DNA of 9,670 nucleotides, from IMG/VR virus record IMGVR_UViG_2778261058_000021, positions 1 through 9,670 of that record. One strand, written 5' to 3'. A program made the translations under genes and the position numbers. Positions 1 to 9,670 of the stretch are shown here, piece after piece. Each line of letters begins with the position of its first letter. Positions within the stretch are counted from its first letter, which is position 1. This stretch comes from a virus. Lineage: Duplodnaviria > Heunggongvirae > Uroviricota > Caudoviricetes. A model generated the notes under the pieces. That model saw only the letters and a program-made list of their open reading frames with translations, did not search any database and was not told where the DNA came from.

Positions 1-996
1 CTAACGAACCAGCCAGACCAGCATCAGGATAATCGCGACTAACAGTATCCACAGCACGGGACGCGTTGCCATATTTTGCAACGTGTCCATCATTGGTGGA
101 AAAGGATTAAGCAGCGGTTGCATATCACGCGGATCAATCCCTTTAACCCGCCGTTGATAAAGCTGATTAAGAATATCCTCGGCCTGGGCAGAAGAAAGCG
201 ATGATTGCGCAGAAAGGCCATATTTTTGCTGGATATATGCCGATAACGCCGCCAGTTCACTGGCATCTAAAGGTTGTTTTAGCGCCATCTGTAGTGATTC
301 CAGCGTCGGCGTATTTTGCTGGCTTAGCGTCTGACGCGCCTGCAGCCAGGTCACCAGATGGTTAAACAGTTTCGCTGGAATTAACTCGCCATCTTTCACC
401 CCGGAAAGTTCCAGCATCGATTGCCAGATCTGTTTGCTGGGTTCCCCCGTTGCCGCCGCAAGTTTGGTCACCAGCTGTTTAAGCGCATTGTGCTCCGCCG
501 GTAATAAAGGACGGTCGGTCGCCTCGCGCTGCTGCGGTTGCGGAATAACCATCTTCCCTTCCTGCAACAGGGTGAGAATGGTTTTTAATTGCTCCGGTGA
601 GAGCTGATTCAGCGGCGTCTGACCAAAGTTATGACGGATATAATCCGTGACCGCCTGACGATTATTCCCCAGACGTAAATACTCCCCTAATTGCGCTAAA
701 AGCTGGCGGGCAGAATGGCTTTTTTGCGCGGCCAGCAGACGTTGCGCCAGGTTGTGTTCAGCGGCAGGGAAGTGACGCGAAAGCAGCGGTGAATCTCCCG
801 ACAGACCAATATCGTGCCTGATACCCGCCCACAGTTCTGCTCTTTGCTGTTGCGTCAGTGAGGTCACTTTCGTCATTAAGCTTTCCAGCGAAGTACGTTG
901 CTGACTGGATAAAGGCTGATTGCCCGCGCCAGACGGCAGGTTATCTCCCTGACCTGGTGGCTGCCCAGGAGGAGGGCCGGAAATAGGTTGTATCAT
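1..996 (-). CDS. flk: flagella biosynthesis regulator Flk (complete, 331 aa)
   Basis: Complete ORF, ATG at 996-994 and TAG at 3-1. Pro/Gly/Gln-rich N-terminus (MIQPISGPPPGQPPGQ) and C-terminal hydrophobic anchor (VLWILLVAIILMLVWLV) match my recollection of E. coli Flk. Not verified by search. Confidence 0.85.
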   Translation of the reverse strand: MIQPISGPPPGQPPGQGDNLPSGAGNQPLSSQQRTSLESLMTKVTSLTQQQRAELWAGIRHDIGLSGDSPLLSRHFPAAEHNLAQRLLAAQKSHSARQLLAQLGEYLRLGNNRQAVTDYIRHNFGQTPLNQLSPEQLKTILTLLQEGKMVIPQPQQREATDRPLLPAEHNALKQLVTKLAAATGEPSKQIWQSMLELSGVKDGELIPAKLFNHLVTWLQARQTLSQQNTPTLESLQMALKQPLDASELAALSAYIQQKYGLSAQSSLSSAQAEDILNQLYQRRVKGIDPRDMQPLLNPFPPMMDTLQNMATRPVLWILLVAIILMLVWLVR

Positions 997-1135
997 TACG
1001 TATCCTTATACCTGAAATCTTCGCAAGTATGCCTGGCCGCGAGATTATGGCACACTTGTCCGGTTAACTCTCGTCTCATACAGGTAACACAAACGTGAAA
1101 ATCCTTGTTGATGAAAAAGATGATTGGTTAATTTA

Positions 1136-1159
1136 TTGATATAAAAGGATTTATATCAA
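1136..1159. promoter_or_regulatory. perfect inverted repeat TTGATATAAA-N4-TTTATATCAA in the divergent flk / orphan-gene intergenic region; candidate operator for a dimeric regulator
   Basis: Read directly from sequence: ttgatataaa agga tttatatcaa. Function is inferred only. Confidence 0.3.
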
Positions 1160-1315
1160 CGTATGTCCACGCAGTGACCACATTTTCGAGATATAGTTAA
1201 AGCCCGTAAAATATGCGGGCTTTATAATTCTTGCTTTGCCCTCTTTTCAAACCATAAAATTTGTGTGCCTTTTTGGGGTGGTTAGTTTTATCTTTGATAT
1301 TATGGAGAATTATTC

Positions 1316-2056
1316 ATGCTTCATTGGGTTTGTATAAAATGTCAGTCTAAAAATTCTACGAAGGAATCAGTGTGTCCTGCGTGTGGAACTTCTTTTTGGT
1401 CGACGCAGAAAAAAGAAAGGAGAGGGTGTTTATTGTTAGTTGTAATGTTCTTCGTTGTGTTTTGGGTTATTGGGCAATTATCCGGAAACGAATCCGATTC
1501 ACAGGTAAATAATATTCCATCGAAAGATCATATTAGCGATGAACTTGCTTTATCTGGAGTAGACAAGGCGAAACCGTATTCTTTTGTGCGTTATGATGAC
1601 ATAAGTTATGCGGGACGAAAGAGATTTAAGGTTTTTATAGTGTCGCCTGAGTCTCAAGATTTAGAATCAAGAGCTTCGACAGCAATGGCCGCGGCTATTG
1701 AGTGGCAGAAAGAGAAGAGAGCTGACTTTGTATCTGTGTTGCTTCTACCTACGGAAAATTCTGAAGGTAGTTATCGGTTGGCAATGGTTGATTATTCTCC
1801 GGATGGTTGCGGAACTGGTGCTGTATGTGATAATAAAAAATGGACTATATTGTCTAGTGACGTAATATTAACGAAATCGCAACTTCAATCTATATCCTTG
1901 TGGAATGAGTATAAGAAAAAGTTTGCGGGTAATGATGGGATTTTGGATTTAAAGGAAGAAAAGAAATTGAAGCAGTTTATTAGTAAACAGCTAAATATTC
2001 CTGTTAAGGATGTATTTACTCCAGATATTTTTCCTTTAAAGAAAATCGAAGATTAA
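1316..2056 (+). CDS. hypothetical membrane-anchored protein: N-terminal CxxC-N11-CxxC zinc ribbon, basic stretch, one TM helix, ~190 aa extracytoplasmic domain; AT-rich, probably horizontally acquired
   Basis: 246-aa ORF with GGAG about 10 nt upstream of the ATG. CIKCQ...CPACG motif, then QKKERRG, then hydrophobic CLLLVVMFFVVFWVIGQL. Codon usage is A/T-rich unlike flanking genes. A hairpin/terminator follows. I recognise no family. Confidence 0.7.
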   Translation: MLHWVCIKCQSKNSTKESVCPACGTSFWSTQKKERRGCLLLVVMFFVVFWVIGQLSGNESDSQVNNIPSKDHISDELALSGVDKAKPYSFVRYDDISYAGRKRFKVFIVSPESQDLESRASTAMAAAIEWQKEKRADFVSVLLLPTENSEGSYRLAMVDYSPDGCGTGAVCDNKKWTILSSDVILTKSQLQSISLWNEYKKKFAGNDGILDLKEEKKLKQFISKQLNIPVKDVFTPDIFPLKKIED

Positions 2057-2133
2057 CAAAATAAATAGACGAGACTGAATTAGTATTATTGTAATCTTTA
2101 ACTGGTACCCTCACTTGTGAGGGCACCAAAAAG

Positions 2134-2170
2134 AAAACCCGCAGTTTTTACGCTGCGGGTTTCTGCTTTG
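2134..2170. terminator. bidirectional rho-independent terminator between the convergent orphan gene and hok
   Basis: Stem cccgcag (2138-2144) / ctgcggg (2153-2159) with an 8-nt loop; A-run upstream and T-rich run downstream give a U-tract on both strands. A second hairpin, ccctcac-tt-gtgaggg, lies at 2108-2123. Confidence 0.6.
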
Positions 2171-2248
2171 GGATGTGTATAGGGTGCCTTATCAGTCTTG
2201 CCCTGACAACCGATTGACGGGGGAATCTCTTCCCCCGTCGCGGTTTCC

Positions 2249-2389
2249 TTACTGTTTACACTGTAAGAACGCCGCAAACTCCGCTCCCCAGAAGCTCATC
2301 CGTATCTCACACAGCGAACCGTGCAGCATCCAGATGATAAGGATCGCCGTCACGCAGAACGTGATGGCTGTAAGCGATTTTTGCGACAT
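2249..2389 (-). CDS. hok: Hok/Gef-family type I toxin (46 aa); not in the supplied ORF track
   Basis: Minus-strand translation MSQKSLTAITFCVTAILIIWMLHGSLCEIRMSFWGAEFAAFLQCKQ: N-terminal TM helix, then SLCEIR and AAFL.CK motifs typical of Hok proteins as I recall them (closest to HokA). AAGGAG lies 7 nt upstream of the ATG. TAA stop at 2251-2249. Confidence 0.8.
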   Translation of the reverse strand: MSQKSLTAITFCVTAILIIWMLHGSLCEIRMSFWGAEFAAFLQCKQ

Positions 2390-2611
2390 AGCGCTTGCTC
2401 CTTTTTTGGGGAGGCGCTAACCTATCACTTGTCTAGGGTAGATGGTTAGGGCCTCGGTTAAACAAAAATGTTTTCCGGGGCCTTTCCACATCCGGCCTTC
2501 AGGTATTCCCTCCAGCCATCAGCCGAAAGGCACCCGCGCGAATTCTAGCCTGGTTTTTTCCCTTGTTTCAATCCGTTGAGACTTATCAGCCTTCTGATGT
2601 AGAATTCCCGA

Positions 2612-2676
2612 CCGCAGACATTATTCAGTCACGCATTTGATACATGCTTCCGCCGGCGTTCGCGCCGGTTTTTTTG
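2612..2676 (+). ncRNA. candidate Sok-like antisense RNA (about 65 nt) opposite the hok leader
   Basis: Plus-strand -35 TTGAGA (2576-2581), 18-bp spacer, -10 TAGAAT (2600-2605), then a strong intrinsic terminator at 2651-2675. The size matches the known Sok RNA. Position relative to the true hok mRNA 5' end is not established. Confidence 0.25.
2651..2675 (+). terminator. rho-independent terminator on the plus strand
   Basis: Stem ccggcg (2653-2658) / cgccgg (2663-2668), loop ttcg, followed by seven T (2669-2675). No plus-strand protein gene ends here, so it probably terminates a small RNA. Confidence 0.55.
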
Positions 2677-2692
2677 TCCTGTTGCTGCGTAG

Positions 2693-2949
2693 ATCGTTAT
2701 GTGCGATCGATGCGCTGTATTGATCCTTTTTTCAGTTTAATTTTGACTCTTAATTTTACGCAGGCCGCGCCGCGTCTGGCTTCGTTGTTTGACGATTTTT
2801 TGATGCGATCCTCTCGTGATCGCTTTTTGTCTCACGTAAAGTATAAAAACCCTTTTAATATCATGCAGTTTTATTGCTTCTGCCATTTGTGCGATCGTAA
2901 AAACCTCTCTGAAAACTGCAAAAAATTTCAAAACGTGAAATTTCTGATC
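2693..2949. repeat. GATC (Dam methylation site) cluster in AT-rich non-coding DNA
   Basis: Seven GATC at 2693, 2705, 2722, 2807, 2818, 2893 and 2946 within about 257 bp (roughly one expected by chance); several sit in a recurring GCGATCG context. AT-rich runs are interspersed. Confidence 0.5.
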
Positions 2950-3055
2950 TTCGCTTTTCCCTCAGTTGCTGCGCGGGCTGGCGGTCATTTTTGCACGGCA
3001 GAAAACTGAAAAAGTGTTTCGACACAAAACCCGCGGGTTGGAGGGGGTAGCGCGG

Positions 3056-3099
3056 TTTACGTCACCTCACGCTTTACGTCACACCGTTTACGTGGTGTG
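3056..3099. repeat. three direct TTTACGT repeats with an embedded inverted repeat cacacc-N8-ggtgtg
   Basis: gTTTACGTcac (3056-3066), cTTTACGTcac (3072-3082), gTTTACGTggt (3086-3096); inverted repeat at 3080-3099. Lies just beyond the 3' end of the tail operon. Confidence 0.4.
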
Positions 3100-3151
3100 C
3101 GCATACAGCGCCGGAATGGCACGCAGAACGCATTAATCAGGTGGCAGATAT

Positions 3152-3179
3152 GGAAAACGCACGGCCTGAACCGTGCGTT
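3152..3179 (-). terminator. candidate intrinsic terminator of the minus-strand tail operon
   Basis: Perfect 9-bp stem aacgcacgg (3156-3164) / ccgtgcgtt (3171-3179), loop cctgaa. On the minus strand it is followed by only a short U-tract (about 4 U). About 40-60 nt downstream of the stop at 3218. Confidence 0.35.
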
Positions 3180-3217
3180 GCGTGATGGGGCGTTTATGTG
3201 GATTTTATGCCCGGTGA

Positions 3218-4915
3218 TTAGGCGATAAGGTCGCCGTATTTTTCGCGAAGGCTTGTAGCCTGTTGGGCGTCTGCGGCAAGTTCGCTGCTGTTTGTTGGTG
3301 CGCCAGTGTTGCTGTGGGTGTGGTTTGCAGTGTGTGTGGCCAGCAACTGAACCAGATCCAGAATATCAATCAACAACGTCAGCAGATTAAGTCCGGATTT
3401 TTCCCGTGAGCCACCGCGCCCAATAAATACAGTCGGGGCAGTAAATTCCAGGCCGCCGTCCGCCCGGCATGTTCTGCGGCCTCCCACGTTTTCGGTGAGG
3501 TTATGCTCGATGGTGGATGTCGCCCCTTTGAGTTTAGTCAGCAAATCCTGCGCTACCATCTGGATATGCTCACCGGCTGCGATCGCATAATGGCCAGTAG
3601 TAATGTGTTCTGTCTGACCTGTCATCAGCTTGCTGGTTCCCAGAACGCTGGTTATGTCGTTTGCCTGTACTGTTGTTGTTCTGGTTGTTGTTGTGCGTTC
3701 TTCCTGATCGCTGTTAATGGTTCGCCTGGCTGAATGCTCCCTGATTTGCTGGTCGGTTTCTCTGTGCCAGCTTCCGTCAGTCGTGACACGCTGAAACACT
3801 TCTGCGCGCTGTTGTTGCAATTGTTCGCCGGGCTTTACATTAGGCAGGTTATGACCAGCGGGTAAGATTTGCCTGATGACAGGTTTATCCGGTCGTCCTT
3901 CAATGTTGGATATTTCCACGATGGTGCCAGCCGGCGGGTAGGCAAAACATCCCGCCTCACTGCCAGCCATGGGGACGGGGAGCGGTACTGCCGGGTAAAC
4001 GGGCGTATCGCTTTTATCGTTGCCGTTCTCATCAAGCAACTGCACATCGACGGCGTAGCGTGGGCGGAAACTGTCGGCCACATCGCCCAGGGTGGCGGGC
4101 TCCGTTGGTGCAATGACGCGCGCCAGCCGGGTATGTAGCGTACCGCTGGCCAGTTCCGGAAACTGTGTTTCCATTTGTCTGCGTAATGGTGATTTGGAAA
4201 CAGGGCTGCCCGTGGCGGTAAGGCGCTCCCATGTCAGGGTCATTTTCTCGTTGTTGAGGGCTACACGGGTAATGCGCCCGGCCGGAAGGTTCACGCCCGG
4301 TCGCACAGTTTCCATAAACATGATGTCGATGCTGTTTCCGCCGCTTTGCCCGAGTGTGTACTGTTGCGGAATATCCGGCATTGTAATACTGGCAAATCGT
4401 GAATCAGCTGCGCTTCCCACAAATACAGAACCGTCCGGCATAGGGTGCCAGACGTAATCGCTGATACTGAATGCTCGCCCCAGTTGGCTGAGCAGTTGTG
4501 CTCCGCTGCCGCTGTGGGTGATGTAGGGAGTTGGTATGCTGACGTAATCCGCATCTGGCGTGATGAAAACGATGCCGCTTTGTTTACCCAGATTATCGAG
4601 TACCCCCCGTAACGTCGGGTGTTGCATGGAGCAAGGGAAATCAAAATCCAGCACAGCAGCTGCTTCACGGATAAAAAGGCGACGTGAGCCATTTTCAGCA
4701 GGTTGATCGCGCTCAATGTAGCCGGAGAAATAGCGCCATGCTTCACCGTCACGGCCGAGATCAATTTGTACCATTGCGCCGGCAAGGGGGTGTTCGGGTG
4801 ACAGATTGTTAACAGAAATGAAGCCGCGACCGGCGGCATTCAGGGTAAGAACAAGGTTTATATCGGCAATTTCCACCCGTTCGCCATTAATCATGCAGCG
4901 TTGTATCAATTTCAT
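3218..4915 (-). CDS. uncharacterised phage protein (565 aa); C-terminus has a metal-site-like HTANHTH motif resembling fibre/spike tips
   Basis: Long ORF whose ATG overlaps the upstream stop as ATGA (4912-4915); GAGGAAGG-like SD upstream. C-terminal ...LLTLLIDILDLVQLLATHTANHTHSNTGAPT resembles HxH tip motifs I recall in P2 gpV (LHTHKHPGDSGG) and in lambda Stf / T4 gp37 (GAHAHS). No match to P2 sheath or tube proteins. Confidence 0.6.
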   Translation of the reverse strand: MKLIQRCMINGERVEIADINLVLTLNAAGRGFISVNNLSPEHPLAGAMVQIDLGRDGEAWRYFSGYIERDQPAENGSRRLFIREAAAVLDFDFPCSMQHPTLRGVLDNLGKQSGIVFITPDADYVSIPTPYITHSGSGAQLLSQLGRAFSISDYVWHPMPDGSVFVGSAADSRFASITMPDIPQQYTLGQSGGNSIDIMFMETVRPGVNLPAGRITRVALNNEKMTLTWERLTATGSPVSKSPLRRQMETQFPELASGTLHTRLARVIAPTEPATLGDVADSFRPRYAVDVQLLDENGNDKSDTPVYPAVPLPVPMAGSEAGCFAYPPAGTIVEISNIEGRPDKPVIRQILPAGHNLPNVKPGEQLQQQRAEVFQRVTTDGSWHRETDQQIREHSARRTINSDQEERTTTTRTTTVQANDITSVLGTSKLMTGQTEHITTGHYAIAAGEHIQMVAQDLLTKLKGATSTIEHNLTENVGGRRTCRADGGLEFTAPTVFIGRGGSREKSGLNLLTLLIDILDLVQLLATHTANHTHSNTGAPTNSSELAADAQQATSLREKYGDLIA

Positions 4916-5487
4916 GTTTTCCCTTCCTCTTTCACGCTCCCGATGCCAACAGCATCCAGACCAGAGCCAACGGCATCATTGATTTTTTTCCAGAACGAAC
5001 TTTGTGTATTCATGCCTTTGTCTGGTGCCTGTTCGCTACCGTTCTGGGTCTGCTGTCTGGCGATGGTTTTCTGCGAACCGCTGCGTGCGGATGCTTTCTC
5101 TGGCACGCTTAATTTTTCCCTGAGAGTAAAGGTGACCTGCCAGTGCATTTTTCCCTGTTGTTCCGTGGCATCAATGCCACCAGAAAATACCCCCTGTCGC
5201 ATATTGATTGCCTTCGCGGTAGCGTTAGCAATGCGATATGTTTTTTTGGCACCGTTGCTTTCTGTTGCCTCCGCAAGCTGAAAAATACGGGTCAGAATAG
5301 CTTCATCGTTAAAATCAATAACCCCCGACACGCGCAGCTCTTTAGCCTTGTTTCCCTGCTGGGCGCTCGTGGTGCTGGTTGACTGTCCGGACATATCTTT
5401 GTCCGGTAGTTGCATGGTGGCGCTGACGGTGATGTTGCGCAGCAGAATGGCTTCCCCGTCAAGCGCAAGGACAATCATCTGGGTCAT
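4912..5487 (-). CDS. uncharacterised phage-associated protein (191 aa)
   Basis: ORF in the same operon; overlaps the upstream gene by 29 nt and the downstream gene by 4 nt (ATGA). Ser/Thr/Gln-rich with no recognisable catalytic motif. An internal later start is possible. Confidence 0.55.
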   Translation of the reverse strand: MTQMIVLALDGEAILLRNITVSATMQLPDKDMSGQSTSTTSAQQGNKAKELRVSGVIDFNDEAILTRIFQLAEATESNGAKKTYRIANATAKAINMRQGVFSGGIDATEQQGKMHWQVTFTLREKLSVPEKASARSGSQKTIARQQTQNGSEQAPDKGMNTQSSFWKKINDAVGSGLDAVGIGSVKEEGKT

Positions 5488-6172
5488 GTAGTGCTTCCCT
5501 TAGTGATGAGAGATTATCGCCGACGAACAGCATCACAGCTGTAAAAACCCACTCGGGGTGTGGGATGTTTTTTTGTATCAGCACTGCAGCCTGGCTAAGG
5601 ACTCCCTTGTAGCAAAAGCGCCACACCGGGCAAAATTTTTGCCGGAGTGCGGCCTGCTGATCAGCGATTTCCTGTAAGGCTTTATCTCTCGCATTCATGA
5701 ACTGATGCAGTGATGATGACAATGTTTCCGGTGATGTGGCGGCAGGATTGGCTGCCTGTGCAATGGTTGCCGCCAGCGACATGCTGCGAGTGGTCTGTGT
5801 CGACAGCATTATCGGTTCCGGAAGTGATGTTGCCGGTCTGGCGGGGATTTGCATTCTGCTGATGGACAGTGAAAGCTGGCTGGAGATCATGCGGGACATT
5901 CGTCCCACCTCCGGCAACGGAAATGCGCCTGAAAATTGCCTGGCGAGTGATAAAAACTCGCCAGCAGAAGGAGCGCAAAATAACAGCGCCACAATGTCCT
6001 TTTCCGTGTTTTCTTTCAAATAGGGTAAAAGTGCAGATACAGCATTTTCGGGGCTGAGATAACGCCCCGATGGTTTGATGTTTCCGGTATTTTCTGACCA
6101 TGGATGAAGGCAAACCACAGAGCATTTAATGTTCATGGCCGACGGGCGCAGAATTGCCTTTTCCCATTTCAT
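5459..6172 (-). CDS. uncharacterised phage-associated protein (237 aa; alternative start at 6136 gives 225 aa)
   Basis: ATG at 6172 overlaps the stop of the upstream gene (ATGA at 6169-6172), implying translational coupling. No family recognised. Confidence 0.55.
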   Translation of the reverse strand: MKWEKAILRPSAMNIKCSVVCLHPWSENTGNIKPSGRYLSPENAVSALLPYLKENTEKDIVALLFCAPSAGEFLSLARQFSGAFPLPEVGRMSRMISSQLSLSISRMQIPARPATSLPEPIMLSTQTTRSMSLAATIAQAANPAATSPETLSSSLHQFMNARDKALQEIADQQAALRQKFCPVWRFCYKGVLSQAAVLIQKNIPHPEWVFTAVMLFVGDNLSSLREALHDPDDCPCA

Positions 6173-6750
6173 TCTGACTCTCCAGCCTGAAAAGCGCGGA
6201 TGTCGGCAAGATTATTCAGGCTATCCAGCACGTCCTTCATCTGTCGCTGACGCTGATAAATCTCGTCATTGCGATCGACCTGCGCCTGCGCCAGTGCTGT
6301 TGCCAGTTCTTCCAGTTCCGGCATCGACAGTTTCACCTGTTGATTATCGGCGTCACCCCATGCCATAACGTCCCGAGCTGTGTCGGATTTTGATGCCATC
6401 ACCACCGGATAAAGGCGAGCCAGTGAGTCGGGGCCAGCGTTCCAGATGTGGCCGTTCCATTCGAACGTGAACGGCTTCGCTTCCTGTTCTGTGCGCCACA
6501 CCTCGATTTCCCGCTTTTTGGCATCTTTTGCCGCTGCGATAAGTTCCGGCGTGACGGTGAACGGGGCGATTTCGCCCCATTTGCCGCTCTGTAACTCTTC
6601 CCAGATGCGCTGGCCTGTCGGTGCGGTATCGTCCTGCATGGCGGTATACGGGACGAATTCCGTTTCACCTTCAAATAACACCTCGCAGTCAACCGCATCA
6701 TTTTCGAGATAATGGGCGTTTCTGATGCCCTTTACCGCTCTGATTTTCAT
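6169..6750 (-). CDS. uncharacterised phage tail-associated protein (193 aa); possibly a chaperone/assembly factor for the adjacent fibre-like protein
   Basis: AAGGAG 8 nt upstream of the ATG at 6750; follows the 648-aa fibre-like gene after a 14-nt gap. Lacks the C-terminal motif of P2 gpG-type Tfa (W/Y..VL..RVD...WP), so a chaperone role is inferred from position only. Confidence 0.6.
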   Translation of the reverse strand: MKIRAVKGIRNAHYLENDAVDCEVLFEGETEFVPYTAMQDDTAPTGQRIWEELQSGKWGEIAPFTVTPELIAAAKDAKKREIEVWRTEQEAKPFTFEWNGHIWNAGPDSLARLYPVVMASKSDTARDVMAWGDADNQQVKLSMPELEELATALAQAQVDRNDEIYQRQRQMKDVLDSLNNLADIRAFQAGESE

Positions 6751-6764
6751 GTTCTATCTCCTTG

Positions 6765-8711
6765 TTACTCAATGCGCACGAACAAACAGATAAAGCCTCT
6801 GTCGCCATACGTTGCACGATAACCTGACAGGGCCTGATAACGACCGGGAAAACTGAATGCCCCAGCACCACCCGCCTTTACTGAAGGTGTGGAACCGTAT
6901 GTCCCGGAATTATTAATTGCACAGTCGATAGCCACAGGACCAAGTCGCGACCCCGCCACTACATCCCCAAGGCCAATTTTTATTTCCTTATCCCCTGCCG
7001 CTGTTCCCTGATAGACCGCGAGAATAAGAGAGCCAACTGCCGGATATTTGTAATATGAGTACGGGCCATTGCCCGCTGTCCGGGACAACAAGAACGCCAG
7101 CGAATCGCCGTCGTAAATAATGGGGCTTACTGTTGCATTCCAGTTGTTTCCACTCCAGCGGTAAGTCAGGCGATGAATGCTGTGTTCGCCTTCGTAATAC
7201 TGGTTAAAACACAGCAGCGTTTTGAATTTGCGTATTGCATCTGATTCGTCATTATCAAAGGGCGACCACATCACATCCATGATGCCGTTAAATTTCGTGG
7301 TGCCCGCCAGTAGTGTGGAAGAGTCCGCAATACTGACCGCATAACGCCCCGGGGTGGCCTCTTTCAGCCATTCAGCAAAATCAGCCTGACCGTTAAATGC
7401 CAGGGCTTCGGTGCTGGTAAATGCCTGACCGAATCCATACATGCCGGACAGCGCCAGCCTGCCCGGTGTACGATCCCAGATATCAGATTGCGCGTCTTTT
7501 ACAGTTGTGTTGCCAGTTAATGGAGTAAGATCTCTCCATACAACAGGGGCTCCGTAGTCAGAGCCGCGAACGCAGGAAAGAATACGTCCGTCTCTTCCGT
7601 AAAACAGAATAAGTTTTGTTGCTGTCTGGCTGGTTTTGTCATTCTGCCAGTTGTCCAGCCAGATAAATTCGACCACACCAGTTAAATCACCTGATGACAT
7701 TGATGATGTGTAATACCGACCCGGACCTGTGTTCATGCATATCAACGCAAGCTCATCAAGATTTGTAATGCCGAGCACCATCCCCTCGTGCTCTGTCATT
7801 CCGTATCCAAATGCCCCCGGTAGCGCCAGCCTGCCTGGTGTGCGGTCGCGGATATTGCTCTGGGGCTCCATCGTCGCAGCCGCTTTCAGTTCAAGTTCCG
7901 TGCGCATGGCTTCAGGTGTGTCCAGTGCCAGTAATGCGCGGGCTTTTTCTGACAGCGGAGAGAGAGAAACATTCCCGTCCTGATTAAAGTACAGAAGATT
8001 ATCTGCCCGTTTCGTCAGTTCACTGATTGCCGTCAGCAAATCGTTCAGCGGTTGTTTACCCGCCAGCGCGTTAATGACCGTCGCCGAAAAGTTCGGGTCA
8101 TTGCCCAGCGCCGCTGCCAGTTCGTTCAGTGTGTCCAGGGCTTCCGGTGATGAGTCAACCAGTGCGGCGAGCAGTTTGCGAACAAACGCTGCGTTCGCCA
8201 TCTCCAGCCCGACCGCATCGTCTGGCGGAGTTGGTGTGGTTGGCGTGCCGGTGAACGCCGGGCTGTCCAGTGGCGCTTTTTTGTTTATTTCAGGAAAAAG
8301 ATCTACCTGCCAGCTCTGTGGAGGAACGGTAATTTGCGCAGCCTGAGCAATGCCGCTGTATATAATTGTGAAATTACGAATAAGTGATTCGCCTGTTACT
8401 TTTTGTTGAACAGGCGTCTTTATTACGCCGCATAGTGTTCCGCTGGCCTGATGGATAAGGCAAATCCAGTCATAACTGAATGCACAGTCATCAGGAACAA
8501 CCGCGCTACACACAATATTGTTCGGGCTTAACTGGCCGTAGGTCAGTTCATTCACAGCATATGTGATTTTTTCTTCCGGAACGGTATTATCTTCGCGCGC
8601 TGGTTCCCGCTCCATCAGAGCAAAAATAATAGCGTCAGGGCGTGCAGGTAAATTACTGGCTGTGCATTCAGCAACCCACTTTTCAAATGCTTTCGTCAAC
8701 AGTGCGCTCAT
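6765..8711 (-). CDS. tail fibre-like protein (648 aa) with an unrecognised ~145-aa N-terminal domain, a conserved fibre collar segment and an internally duplicated C-terminal region
   Basis: Segment NKKAPLDSPAFTGTPTTPT...AALVDSSPEALDTLNELAAALGNDPNFSATVINALAGKQP matches the conserved segment I recall in P2 gpH and lambda Stf. The C-terminal half holds two diverged copies of a domain starting QS.I.DRTPGRLAL.G..G.G. Starts 6 nt after the tfa stop. Confidence 0.8.
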   Translation of the reverse strand: MSALLTKAFEKWVAECTASNLPARPDAIIFALMEREPAREDNTVPEEKITYAVNELTYGQLSPNNIVCSAVVPDDCAFSYDWICLIHQASGTLCGVIKTPVQQKVTGESLIRNFTIIYSGIAQAAQITVPPQSWQVDLFPEINKKAPLDSPAFTGTPTTPTPPDDAVGLEMANAAFVRKLLAALVDSSPEALDTLNELAAALGNDPNFSATVINALAGKQPLNDLLTAISELTKRADNLLYFNQDGNVSLSPLSEKARALLALDTPEAMRTELELKAAATMEPQSNIRDRTPGRLALPGAFGYGMTEHEGMVLGITNLDELALICMNTGPGRYYTSSMSSGDLTGVVEFIWLDNWQNDKTSQTATKLILFYGRDGRILSCVRGSDYGAPVVWRDLTPLTGNTTVKDAQSDIWDRTPGRLALSGMYGFGQAFTSTEALAFNGQADFAEWLKEATPGRYAVSIADSSTLLAGTTKFNGIMDVMWSPFDNDESDAIRKFKTLLCFNQYYEGEHSIHRLTYRWSGNNWNATVSPIIYDGDSLAFLLSRTAGNGPYSYYKYPAVGSLILAVYQGTAAGDKEIKIGLGDVVAGSRLGPVAIDCAINNSGTYGSTPSVKAGGAGAFSFPGRYQALSGYRATYGDRGFICLFVRIE

Positions 8712-8717
8712 TACTTC

Positions 8718-9272
8718 TTAATTCTTGCTAATGTTCTGCGGTAATTCTGGCCATACAATCGCGGCATACGATGCTTTATCTGTAACCTGGCTGAATGTCA
8801 TCTCCCGTAACGTTTTTGTATAAATACGGCATGCTTTCAGTTTTTCCTTGTCTTCGTCGCTGATTAATCCCAGCAGCAGGTCTTTTTCCCACTCGCTAGT
8901 TATGATGCTGATCTGTTTTAACAGAGCATCACGCTCATCTTCCGCTTTAAGTTTGTGGTCGAAAACAAATTCATCATTGCGATAAAACCAGTATCCCGAC
9001 GCCTCAATGCGACGATTAGCGGTAATATCCGGCAATTCAATCACACTTTTATTTTCCGGGCAGATTGAGGTGATGTCTTTTCCGACCCAGACCACTTCGC
9101 CAGTTTCGGCATAAATAACTTTCAGAGTGTCTGGCTGAAATTTTTCCTGGGCTTCGTGCCATTCCTGGCCATCATCTGAGAACAGCCACAATAAAAATTT
9201 ATGCTGCCGCGCCAGCTGGTATTGCTCAATTGTTTTGGGGTTTTGTGCCGTAAGATTTTTTAAGTGCATCAT
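8718..9272 (-). CDS. tail fibre assembly protein (P2 gpG / Mu U family, 184 aa)
   Basis: N-terminus MMHLKNLTAQNPKTIEQYQL closely resembles the P2 gpG / Mu U N-terminus (M.HLKN....NPKTKEQYQL) as I recall it; PDITANRR and C-terminal WPELP motifs are also present. Starts 2 nt after the upstream fibre stop. Confidence 0.85.
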   Translation of the reverse strand: MMHLKNLTAQNPKTIEQYQLARQHKFLLWLFSDDGQEWHEAQEKFQPDTLKVIYAETGEVVWVGKDITSICPENKSVIELPDITANRRIEASGYWFYRNDEFVFDHKLKAEDERDALLKQISIITSEWEKDLLLGLISDEDKEKLKACRIYTKTLREMTFSQVTDKASYAAIVWPELPQNISKN

Positions 9273-9274
9273 GA

Positions 9275-9670
9275 TTACAAACTCGCTACATTCCGCCAGA
9301 CGCCATTAATCAGAACCTGTACCGGGCGGGCATTGGCCCAGTCCATACTTTCACCACCATCAAGACCGCTGATAAGGTGACCTGATGGTGCATTCCCGCC
9401 ACGCCCAATACCAATGGCACTGCCCAGACGCACATCCTGTACACCGCCTGTTTTGGCCTGATAGCGGGCATCAAAGTTTCCGTAGTTTGATGGAACCATC
9501 TGCCCGTTTACAGCGAACGTTATACTGTTATCCGTATTCCTCTGACTGTAAAAATGCCAGCCGGAATCATCGCCAAGCTCTGCAACTACAGGTCGGGATG
9601 AATTACCCCATAAACTAAACGTTGCGTTTTTCGTGGAGTTGTTGGCGCTGGATAACGTGAATTTTTTAGC
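9275..9670 (-). CDS. tail fibre protein, C-terminal part only (P2 gpH-like); the reading frame stays open to the window edge
   Basis: I translated the frame upstream of the listed 74-aa ORF and it stays open to 9670: ...NSTKNATFSLWGNSSRPVVAELGDDSGWHFYSQRNTDNSITFAVNGQMVPSNYGNFDARY...LINGVWRNVASL. This is close to the P2 gpH C-terminus as I remember it (STKNITFNLWGASTRPVVAELGDEAGWHFYSQRNTDNSVIFAVNGQMQPSNWGNFDSRY...INGTWYNVAQV). TAA at 9277-9275. Confidence 0.85.
   Translation of the reverse strand, partial: AKKFTLSSANNSTKNATFSLWGNSSRPVVAELGDDSGWHFYSQRNTDNSITFAVNGQMVPSNYGNFDARYQAKTGGVQDVRLGSAIGIGRGGNAPSGHLISGLDGGESMDWANARPVQVLINGVWRNVASL

Follow-up and report, generated by a model that had tools for sequence, protein, structure and literature searches.

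A four-gene module beside flk in Escherichia coli very probably closes the tail operon of an HP1-type prophage

The DNA analyzed here, a stretch of 9,670 nucleotides (nt) referred to as the window (IMG/VR record IMGVR_UViG_2778261058_000021, positions 1 to 9,670), represents an Escherichia coli chromosome adjoining the flk gene. It contains a compact module of four open reading frames (ORFs) encoding proteins of 193, 237, 191 and 565 amino acids (aa), which are located as follows.

6169-6750, minus strand: 193-aa ORF, DUF4376 protein
5459-6172, minus strand: 237-aa ORF, homologue of orf33 of bacteriophage HP1
4912-5487, minus strand: 191-aa ORF, homologue of HP1 orf34
3218-4915, minus strand: 565-aa ORF, homologue of HP1 orf35

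The gene junctions were re-read in the sequence and were exactly as given in the original prediction made for this DNA: all four ORFs are on the minus strand, ATGA is present at 6169-6172 and 4912-4915, and a 29-nt overlap at 5459-5487 contains the stop codon of the 237-aa ORF (TGA, 5459-5461) and the start codon of the 191-aa ORF (ATG, 5485-5487). These junctions confirm translational coupling between the genes. Each ORF matched a phage protein family with E values from 1e-39 to 1e-233, the families including PF25759, phrog_2258, phrog_1677 and DUF4376, and full-length homologues exist for each of them. As these matches are far beyond chance, the four ORFs are real genes rather than chance ORFs.

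The 237-, 191- and 565-aa proteins were found to be orthologues of the products of orf33, orf34 and orf35 of Haemophilus phage HP1. The 565-aa protein matched HP1 orf35 in a tblastn search at 1e-107 with 42% identity over the aligned 441 residues; the 237-aa protein matched HP1 orf33 at 2e-10 with 23% identity, and the 191-aa protein falls into Pfam family PF25759, 'HP1_ORF34 baseplate complex protein' (9.7e-54). In all, 75 phage records were matched by the 565-aa protein (tblastn), and among the matches listed all are HP1-type Peduoviridae: HP1, HP2, K139/Kappa, phiO18P, F108, ESSI-2-like phages, Yersinia phage 324 and relatives from Pseudomonas and Pseudoalteromonas. The 237-aa protein matched 26 phage records (tblastn), including HP1 orf33, HP2 orf33 and ESSI-2-like phages.

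Synteny was checked in HP1, Vibrio phage Kappa/K139, Yersinia phage 324 (vB_YenM_324) and E. coli prophages. In HP1, 324 and Kappa the three genes (hereafter the trio) are present in the same order directly after the fibre and fibre-assembly genes and are the last late genes before the end of the genome or prophage; Kappa kp43 stands at the position of the 237-aa gene. The same terminal position of the trio was observed in the E. coli prophages of strains A36 and AJ1. No separately annotated gpV, gpU or gpD gene was found in A36, AJ1, HP1, 324 or Kappa, which argues that these functions are supplied by the trio. We conclude with high confidence that the region forms the far end of the late (tail) operon in an HP1-type (P2-related) Peduoviridae prophage located beside flk in E. 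coli, and that its genes encode ordinary structural parts.

The rest of such a prophage can be followed in closely related DNA. The window is 99.6% identical, without gaps, to contig L009 of assembly GCA_009901125.1, in which genes for the tape measure, a DUF2590 (gpW-like) protein, Baseplate_J, a 211-aa gpI-like protein and a 608-aa fibre (fibre 1) are located directly upstream of the genes of the window. Complete prophages of the same lineage are present in strain AJ1 at flk-pdxB and in strain A36 at serS. Each carries portal, terminase, scaffold, P2-family capsid, head completion, DUF2586 (a sheath homologue of the HP1 type) and tube protein genes. After the tube gene the order in both is holin, M15 lysin, tail chaperone, tape measure, DUF2590, J, I, fibre, Tfa, fibre 2 and DUF4376, followed by the 237-, 191- and 565-aa genes, hok/gef and the prophage end. 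For the sheath and head genes the observation comes from close relatives at the same flk site (AJ1). At this end of the prophage the genes run in the order tape measure, gpW-like (DUF2590), gpJ, gpI, fibre 1, Tfa, fibre 2, DUF4376 chaperone, orf33, orf34, orf35, hok/gef and prophage end.

These comparisons bear directly on what had been expected of the locus. A position after a fibre/chaperone pair and before an element boundary was borne out, the prophage ending at about position 2108 with hok/gef in between. The identification of that position with the variable slot between G and FI of P2 was wrong: the trio closes the late operon and the sheath and tube genes lie far upstream, before the lysis genes, and therefore this is a conserved end of the late operon and not the slot of P2. 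The locus in HP1, Kappa, Yersinia 324, A36 and AJ1 identifies the trio as conserved structure. Of the two readings that had been left open, the structural or baseplate module proved right; a novel and unassigned set of genes in a variable cargo slot, possibly for defence, is not supported. That the module could not be matched to V, U and D is understandable, because similarity to the P2 and Mu proteins is undetectable even with profiles and only the predicted folds disclose a hub, spike and initiator relationship. Homology to standard tail components, conservation of position and presence of homologues in virions, which had been named as marks of an ordinary structural module, were essentially all found, the exception being the 237-aa protein, for which no fold can be assigned.

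The 565-aa protein (orf35) is assigned as a single-chain fusion of a baseplate hub (gpD/Mu gp44/gp27-like) with a central spike (gpV/Mu gp45/gp5-like), a VgrG-like architecture. Its parts are located as follows (OB, oligonucleotide/oligosaccharide-binding).

4196-4915, minus strand: hub domain, approximately aa 1-240
3647-4063, minus strand: putative spike OB-fold and beta-helix, approximately aa 285-423
3314-3322, minus strand: HxH motif H532-T533-H534 at the spike apex, a predicted iron-binding histidine cage

In a monomer model the N-terminal domain has a predicted hub fold of the T4 gp27 / Mu gp44 / P2 gpD type. Weak profile matches were obtained to the Phage_base_V OB domain (aa 310-347) and to the gp5 C-terminal beta-helix (aa 393-442), together with weak matches to VgrG and Pvc8 at aa 313-435. 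The sequence LATHTANHTHSNTG is present in the C-terminal part of the protein. Residues H532 and H534 are invariant in 43 homologues, and HxH with the next Pro is invariant in all six aligned sequences, namely the 565-aa protein, its HP1, Kappa and Yersinia 324 orthologues, P2 gpV and Mu gp45. In gpV the HxH motifs of three chains together enclose an Fe ion in a histidine cage, located in the Apex domain that attacks the membrane (bioRxiv 10.1101/2023.02.25.529910), and by analogy the motif in the 565-aa protein is predicted to be the tip of the central spike and to form an iron cage. The resemblance to HxH metal-binding tips noticed earlier is therefore sound as far as the alignment with P2 gpV and Mu gp45 goes, although the tip is that of the central spike and not of a fibre. 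In the supplement of PMC10612066 HP1 orf35 is stated to be a gpD-gpV fusion, and separate gpD and gpV homologues are recorded there as detected by mass spectrometry in virions of Pseudoalteromonas phage ACA1. The 565-aa protein would trimerise into the central hub and, with the same chain, into a membrane-piercing spike carrying an HxH iron cage at its tip; the oligomeric states of the module proteins and the binding of iron are what we infer from these comparisons.

The 191-aa protein (orf34) has a predicted tail-tube fold whose nearest matches are tube-initiator or 'ripcord' proteins such as pyocin PA0626, itself of the P2 gpU type. The protein also contains a disordered linker and a C-terminal helix, and its gene adjoins the hub gene. 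On this modelled fold the protein is assigned to the tube-initiator/'ripcord' class and is taken as the functional counterpart of P2 gpU. In Pfam no match to Phage_P2_GpU (PF06995) was seen at E up to 0.1, and hhalign gave a probability of 0.1% for the comparison with P2 gpU; it is therefore a structural and functional analogue of gpU and not a member of that family by sequence. Single-sequence and profile searches of solved structures with the 191-aa protein returned chance-level matches only. As a tube-fold paralogue it would sit on the hub and seed polymerisation of the tail tube, its exact position on the hub being presumed.

The 237-aa protein (orf33) matched phrog_31292 (1e-72) and phrog_1677 (6e-39). 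The orf33 family comprises 142 representatives at 50% clustering, mostly of 230-300 aa, which align over their full length and diverge fast. A distant homologue, gp46 of phage ACA1, was detected in virions by mass spectrometry with 2 spectra (PMC10612066 supplement). Because of its conserved position and the presence of the ACA1 homologue in virions, a low-copy baseplate-associated role appears most likely, and the 237-aa protein is probably a low-copy baseplate-associated or virion protein. Any role for orf33 is one that we infer. A tentative suggestion, which we do not favour, is that the orf33 family represents a baseplate component of new structure that is confined to HP1-type tails; it could, for instance, replace gpX, the LysM protein that links hub and wedges in P2 and in R-pyocins, or couple the fibres to the hub.

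It could also be argued that the 237-aa protein is an assembly factor, for example a further fibre or hub chaperone, or a host-range adaptor joining fibre to baseplate, and not a core baseplate component. Its gene comes directly after the chaperone genes of the fibres, its sequence changes more quickly than those of the neighbouring genes (orf33 is 23% identical to its HP1 counterpart, orf35 42%), only two spectra were recorded in ACA1 virions, and sequence and profile searches of structure databases found no structural relative. We nevertheless consider this less likely, since the homologue was detected in purified ACA1 virions at counts like those of gpV and gpJ-class proteins, and the protein is conserved among phages with quite different fibres.

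A number of other candidates for these small proteins were considered and rejected. In searches of solved structures with the 191- and 237-aa proteins, all of whose matches were at chance level, those to NDUEG3 (E 2.8e-4 overall, each stretch E of about 3) and to a superoxide reductase were short and unsupported. A metal site in the 237-aa protein (C17, H23, C66, C181 and H205, all kept in enterobacterial homologues) was dropped because the Cys and His residues are not conserved in the orthologues of HP1, Kappa and Yersinia 324. Two proteins with unusual architecture were noted in the orf33 family. P0305 (527 aa) carries the orf33 domain after a 300-aa N-terminal region without a family match, and in P0301 (323 aa) the orf33 N-terminus is joined to the C-terminus of the orf35 spike; this is probably a chimera produced by deletion in a prophage that is decaying.

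Several points weigh against the assignment of the trio to a functional HP1-type baseplate. In the monomer model of the 565-aa protein the spike half is of low confidence, with a predicted local distance difference test score of 30-60 over aa 350-500, so that the proposed beta-helix and apex rest mainly on the weak profile matches and the motif alignment. Mass spectrometry of ACA1 did not detect the orf34 homologue, and the authors call its homology to gpU uncertain (PMC10612066 supplement). For the 237-aa protein single-sequence and profile searches found no Pfam, NCBIfam or Protein Data Bank relative. The virion detections belong to the Pseudoalteromonas phage ACA1, and some relatives of the E. 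coli prophage have clearly decayed, an example being the deletion derivative in E. coli STEC308 described below.

The fused architecture of the 565-aa protein, and the label 'type VI secretion system Vgr family protein' given to one orthologue by the Prokaryotic Genome Annotation Pipeline (PGAP), would also fit a VgrG of a type VI secretion system (T6SS), or a spike that belongs to an extracellular contractile injection system (eCIS) or tailocin. This is very improbable: with the T6SS VgrG models TIGR01646 and TIGR03361, whose cut-offs are 121.8 and 186 bits, the protein scored 19.5 and 15.7 bits; the surrounding prophage includes portal, terminase, capsid, lysis and integrase genes, and no T6SS genes are nearby; and 75 out of 75 matches in the phage database are in phage genomes, those among the matches listed being of the HP1 type. 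The least credible alternative is that the module is non-structural cargo (anti-phage defence, exclusion or a toxin) that occupies a variable slot after the fibres and has co-opted fibre- or spike-like folds; it draws on the proximity of the prophage end, where morons often sit, on the true moron hok/gef just downstream and on the 237-aa protein without annotated function, and it fails on several grounds. The trio corresponds to HP1 orf33-35 and keeps an identical position in phages from Haemophilus, Pasteurella, Vibrio, Yersinia and E. coli, and the remaining gene encodes a predicted DUF4376 fibre chaperone. Besides the trio, no gene for a hub, a spike or a tube initiator is annotated in these genomes. 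At E up to 0.01 PADLOC-DB models match none of the four proteins, the predicted folds resemble baseplate hubs and tube initiators, and homologues were detected in virions.

The 193-aa gene begins 14 nt past the stop codon of a fibre gene and is best considered together with the fibre region, which is organized as follows.

6765-8711, minus strand: 648-aa second tail fibre (fibre 2), putative client of the DUF4376 chaperone
8718-9272, minus strand: 184-aa gpG/Tfa-type fibre assembly protein, for fibre 1 (Pfam Caudo_TAP 4.5e-19; phrog_136 3e-53)
9275-9670, minus strand: fibre 1 (gpH type), C-terminal part (phrog_454 and phrog_6859, tail fibre)

The reading frame of fibre 1 is unbroken up to base 9670, its ORF exceeding the end of the window. 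The 193-aa protein matched Pfam DUF4376 (PF14301) at 9.7e-16 with 58.6 bits against a cut-off of 25, and phrog_1141, 'tail fiber protein', at 2e-85; in NCBIfam there were zero matches for the 193-, 237- and 191-aa proteins. Experiments on Alteromonas phages V22 and A5 showed that DUF4376 proteins whose genes follow those of the fibres are needed there as fibre chaperones (PMC7289586, PMC10579305). By analogy the 193-aa protein is taken as the intermolecular chaperone of the 648-aa fibre, whose gene immediately precedes its own, and would fold this second fibre. Fibre 2 and the DUF4376 gene are both missing in HP1, Kappa and Yersinia 324, in which G is directly followed by orf33. The pair is therefore a truly accessory cassette, and it is to this cassette and not to the trio that the 193-aa gene belongs.

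The 648-aa fibre matched the N-terminal domain Phage_tail_fib of Pfam (1.3e-11) and the tail fibre family phrog_2636 (2e-104). Its N-terminal 140 aa, the tail-collar or baseplate attachment domain, are 37% identical to those of fibre 1 (L009:3815-5641), and the distal parts of the two fibres are unrelated. The chaperones are also of different types, Caudo_TAP for fibre 1 and DUF4376 for fibre 2, and the length of fibre 2 varies among strains from 431 to 648 aa. The presence of two such fibre sequences suggests dual or alternative receptor binding.

On the other side of the trio the window contains the end of the prophage and host DNA.

2108-3217, no strand given: right end of the prophage, non-coding DNA and hok/gef
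2249-2389, minus strand: hok/gef, 46 aa, weak Pfam HOK_GEF match
1316-2056, plus strand: DUF4875 gene of low GC content, on the host side
1-996: flk, host DNA

Homology with the copies at serS (A36) and next to prpR (contig L012) starts at approximately position 2108 of the window. As the right end from this point is common to copies at three loci, the boundary of the element is fixed at about 2108. At least three positions in the chromosome (flk-pdxB, downstream of serS, and beside prpR) are occupied by the same prophage type, and its right end is identical in each, which implies that different integrase/att modules are combined with a shared structural backbone. The three-gene block was found in 48 out of 5426 complete E. 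coli genomes with 92.7-98.6% identity, nearly always in a single copy (median of 1 place per genome, highest 2).

The 46-aa Hok/Gef toxin gene is a moron at the prophage end and is present in all copies examined; in STEC308, A36 and AJ1 Hok/Gef is annotated at the same place. No Rfam family, Sok RNA included, was detected in the window at gathering thresholds. Between hok and the stop codon of the hub-spike gene lie about 830 nt of non-coding DNA (2390-3217), which are kept in copies at three integration sites. This stretch contains three closely spaced TTTACGT(C/G) motifs at 3053-3100 and also, at 3156-3179, a hairpin, perhaps the terminator of the late operon. The DUF4875 gene, with a GC content of 0.37-0.39, encodes an N-terminal zinc-ribbon, a transmembrane segment and the DUF4875 domain. 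It is located between flk and the prophage end and is missing from the copies at serS and next to prpR; it is therefore outside the prophage and may be a separate islet.

In E. coli STEC308 (L001 22249-39636) the prophage at flk-pdxB is represented by a deletion derivative of approximately 17 kb, common to several isolates of Shiga toxin-producing E. coli. Still present are the integrase, cox, a replication endonuclease with a frameshift, parM/parR, the two fibres and orf33-35, and all head, sheath, tube, tape-measure and J/I genes are missing. This composition suggested a satellite carrying tail fibres, which was rejected: the replication gene is frameshifted and the element has the appearance of a full prophage shortened by deletion.

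Annotation of the trio in public records is poor. RefSeq names the genes 'hypothetical' or sometimes mislabels them, and in STEC308 PGAP skips the intact 237-aa gene (L001 25459-26172) and calls an antisense 91-aa ORF instead. Labels of orthologues include 'adenine glycosylase' for orf34 and 'topoisomerase' for the sheath in Yersinia 324, 'head completion protein' for orf35 in Salmonella phage SW5, and the Vgr label quoted above for orf35 in AJ1; the phage records behind these inconsistencies are NC_070917.1 and MK972713.1. The present assignment removes a false lead, in that the module is neither cargo nor defence, and carries little weight beyond annotation. It places the hub, spike and tube-initiator genes of HP1-type E. 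coli prophages at the very end of the tail operon, and clear names for the three families should give better calls of prophage completeness and fewer spurious T6SS or cargo calls.

The module is already known, as its parts correspond to described families and agree with what has been published for HP1-type phages; the supplement of PMC10612066 gives the same assignments for HP1. In HP1 the three proteins (UniProt P51737, P51738 and P51739) have 258, 187 and 533 aa, compared with 237, 191 and 565 aa in the window, and identities to them are 23-42%. The same three-gene order is also present in HP2, K139/Kappa, phiO18P, F108 and ESSI-2-like phages. Unlike HP1, the E. coli lineage has an extra fibre and DUF4376 chaperone between G and orf33. 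Against HP1 and K139 the tblastn alignment of the 565-aa protein stops at residue 441-499, the C-terminal part being the most divergent, yet HxH is still kept there. As regards the chaperone, V22 gp27 and A5 gp9 resemble the 193-aa protein in the C-terminal DUF4376 domain, in similar size and in having a gene that directly follows that of a fibre. They differ from it in host and in fibre, and chaperone activity of the 193-aa protein is predicted by analogy.

Compared with P2 gpU, pyocin R2 PA0626, Pam3 gp17, Bas63 gp018 and the N-domain of Mu gp43, the 191-aa protein has no sequence similarity. It is without a LysM domain, and it constitutes its own Pfam family, PF25759, rather than belonging to Phage_P2_GpU. 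Hub and spike are encoded by two genes in P2 (gpD and gpV) and Mu (gp44 and gp45) and by a single one in the window, with no sequence similarity of the 565-aa protein to any of these four detectable even with profiles. In P2 the V gene heads the V operon, whereas the 565-aa gene closes the late operon. Predicted helical segments at aa 443-464, 511-530 and 543-560 flank the HxH motif and are absent from gpV, so the architecture of the spike tip, as modelled, may differ from that of gpV. VgrG of the T6SS and Afp8/Pvc8 of eCIS are likewise fused hub-spikes, yet the 565-aa protein misses the T6SS VgrG family models; its gene stands in a prophage with capsid genes and without a PAAR gene, and its tip is an HxH apex as in gpV.

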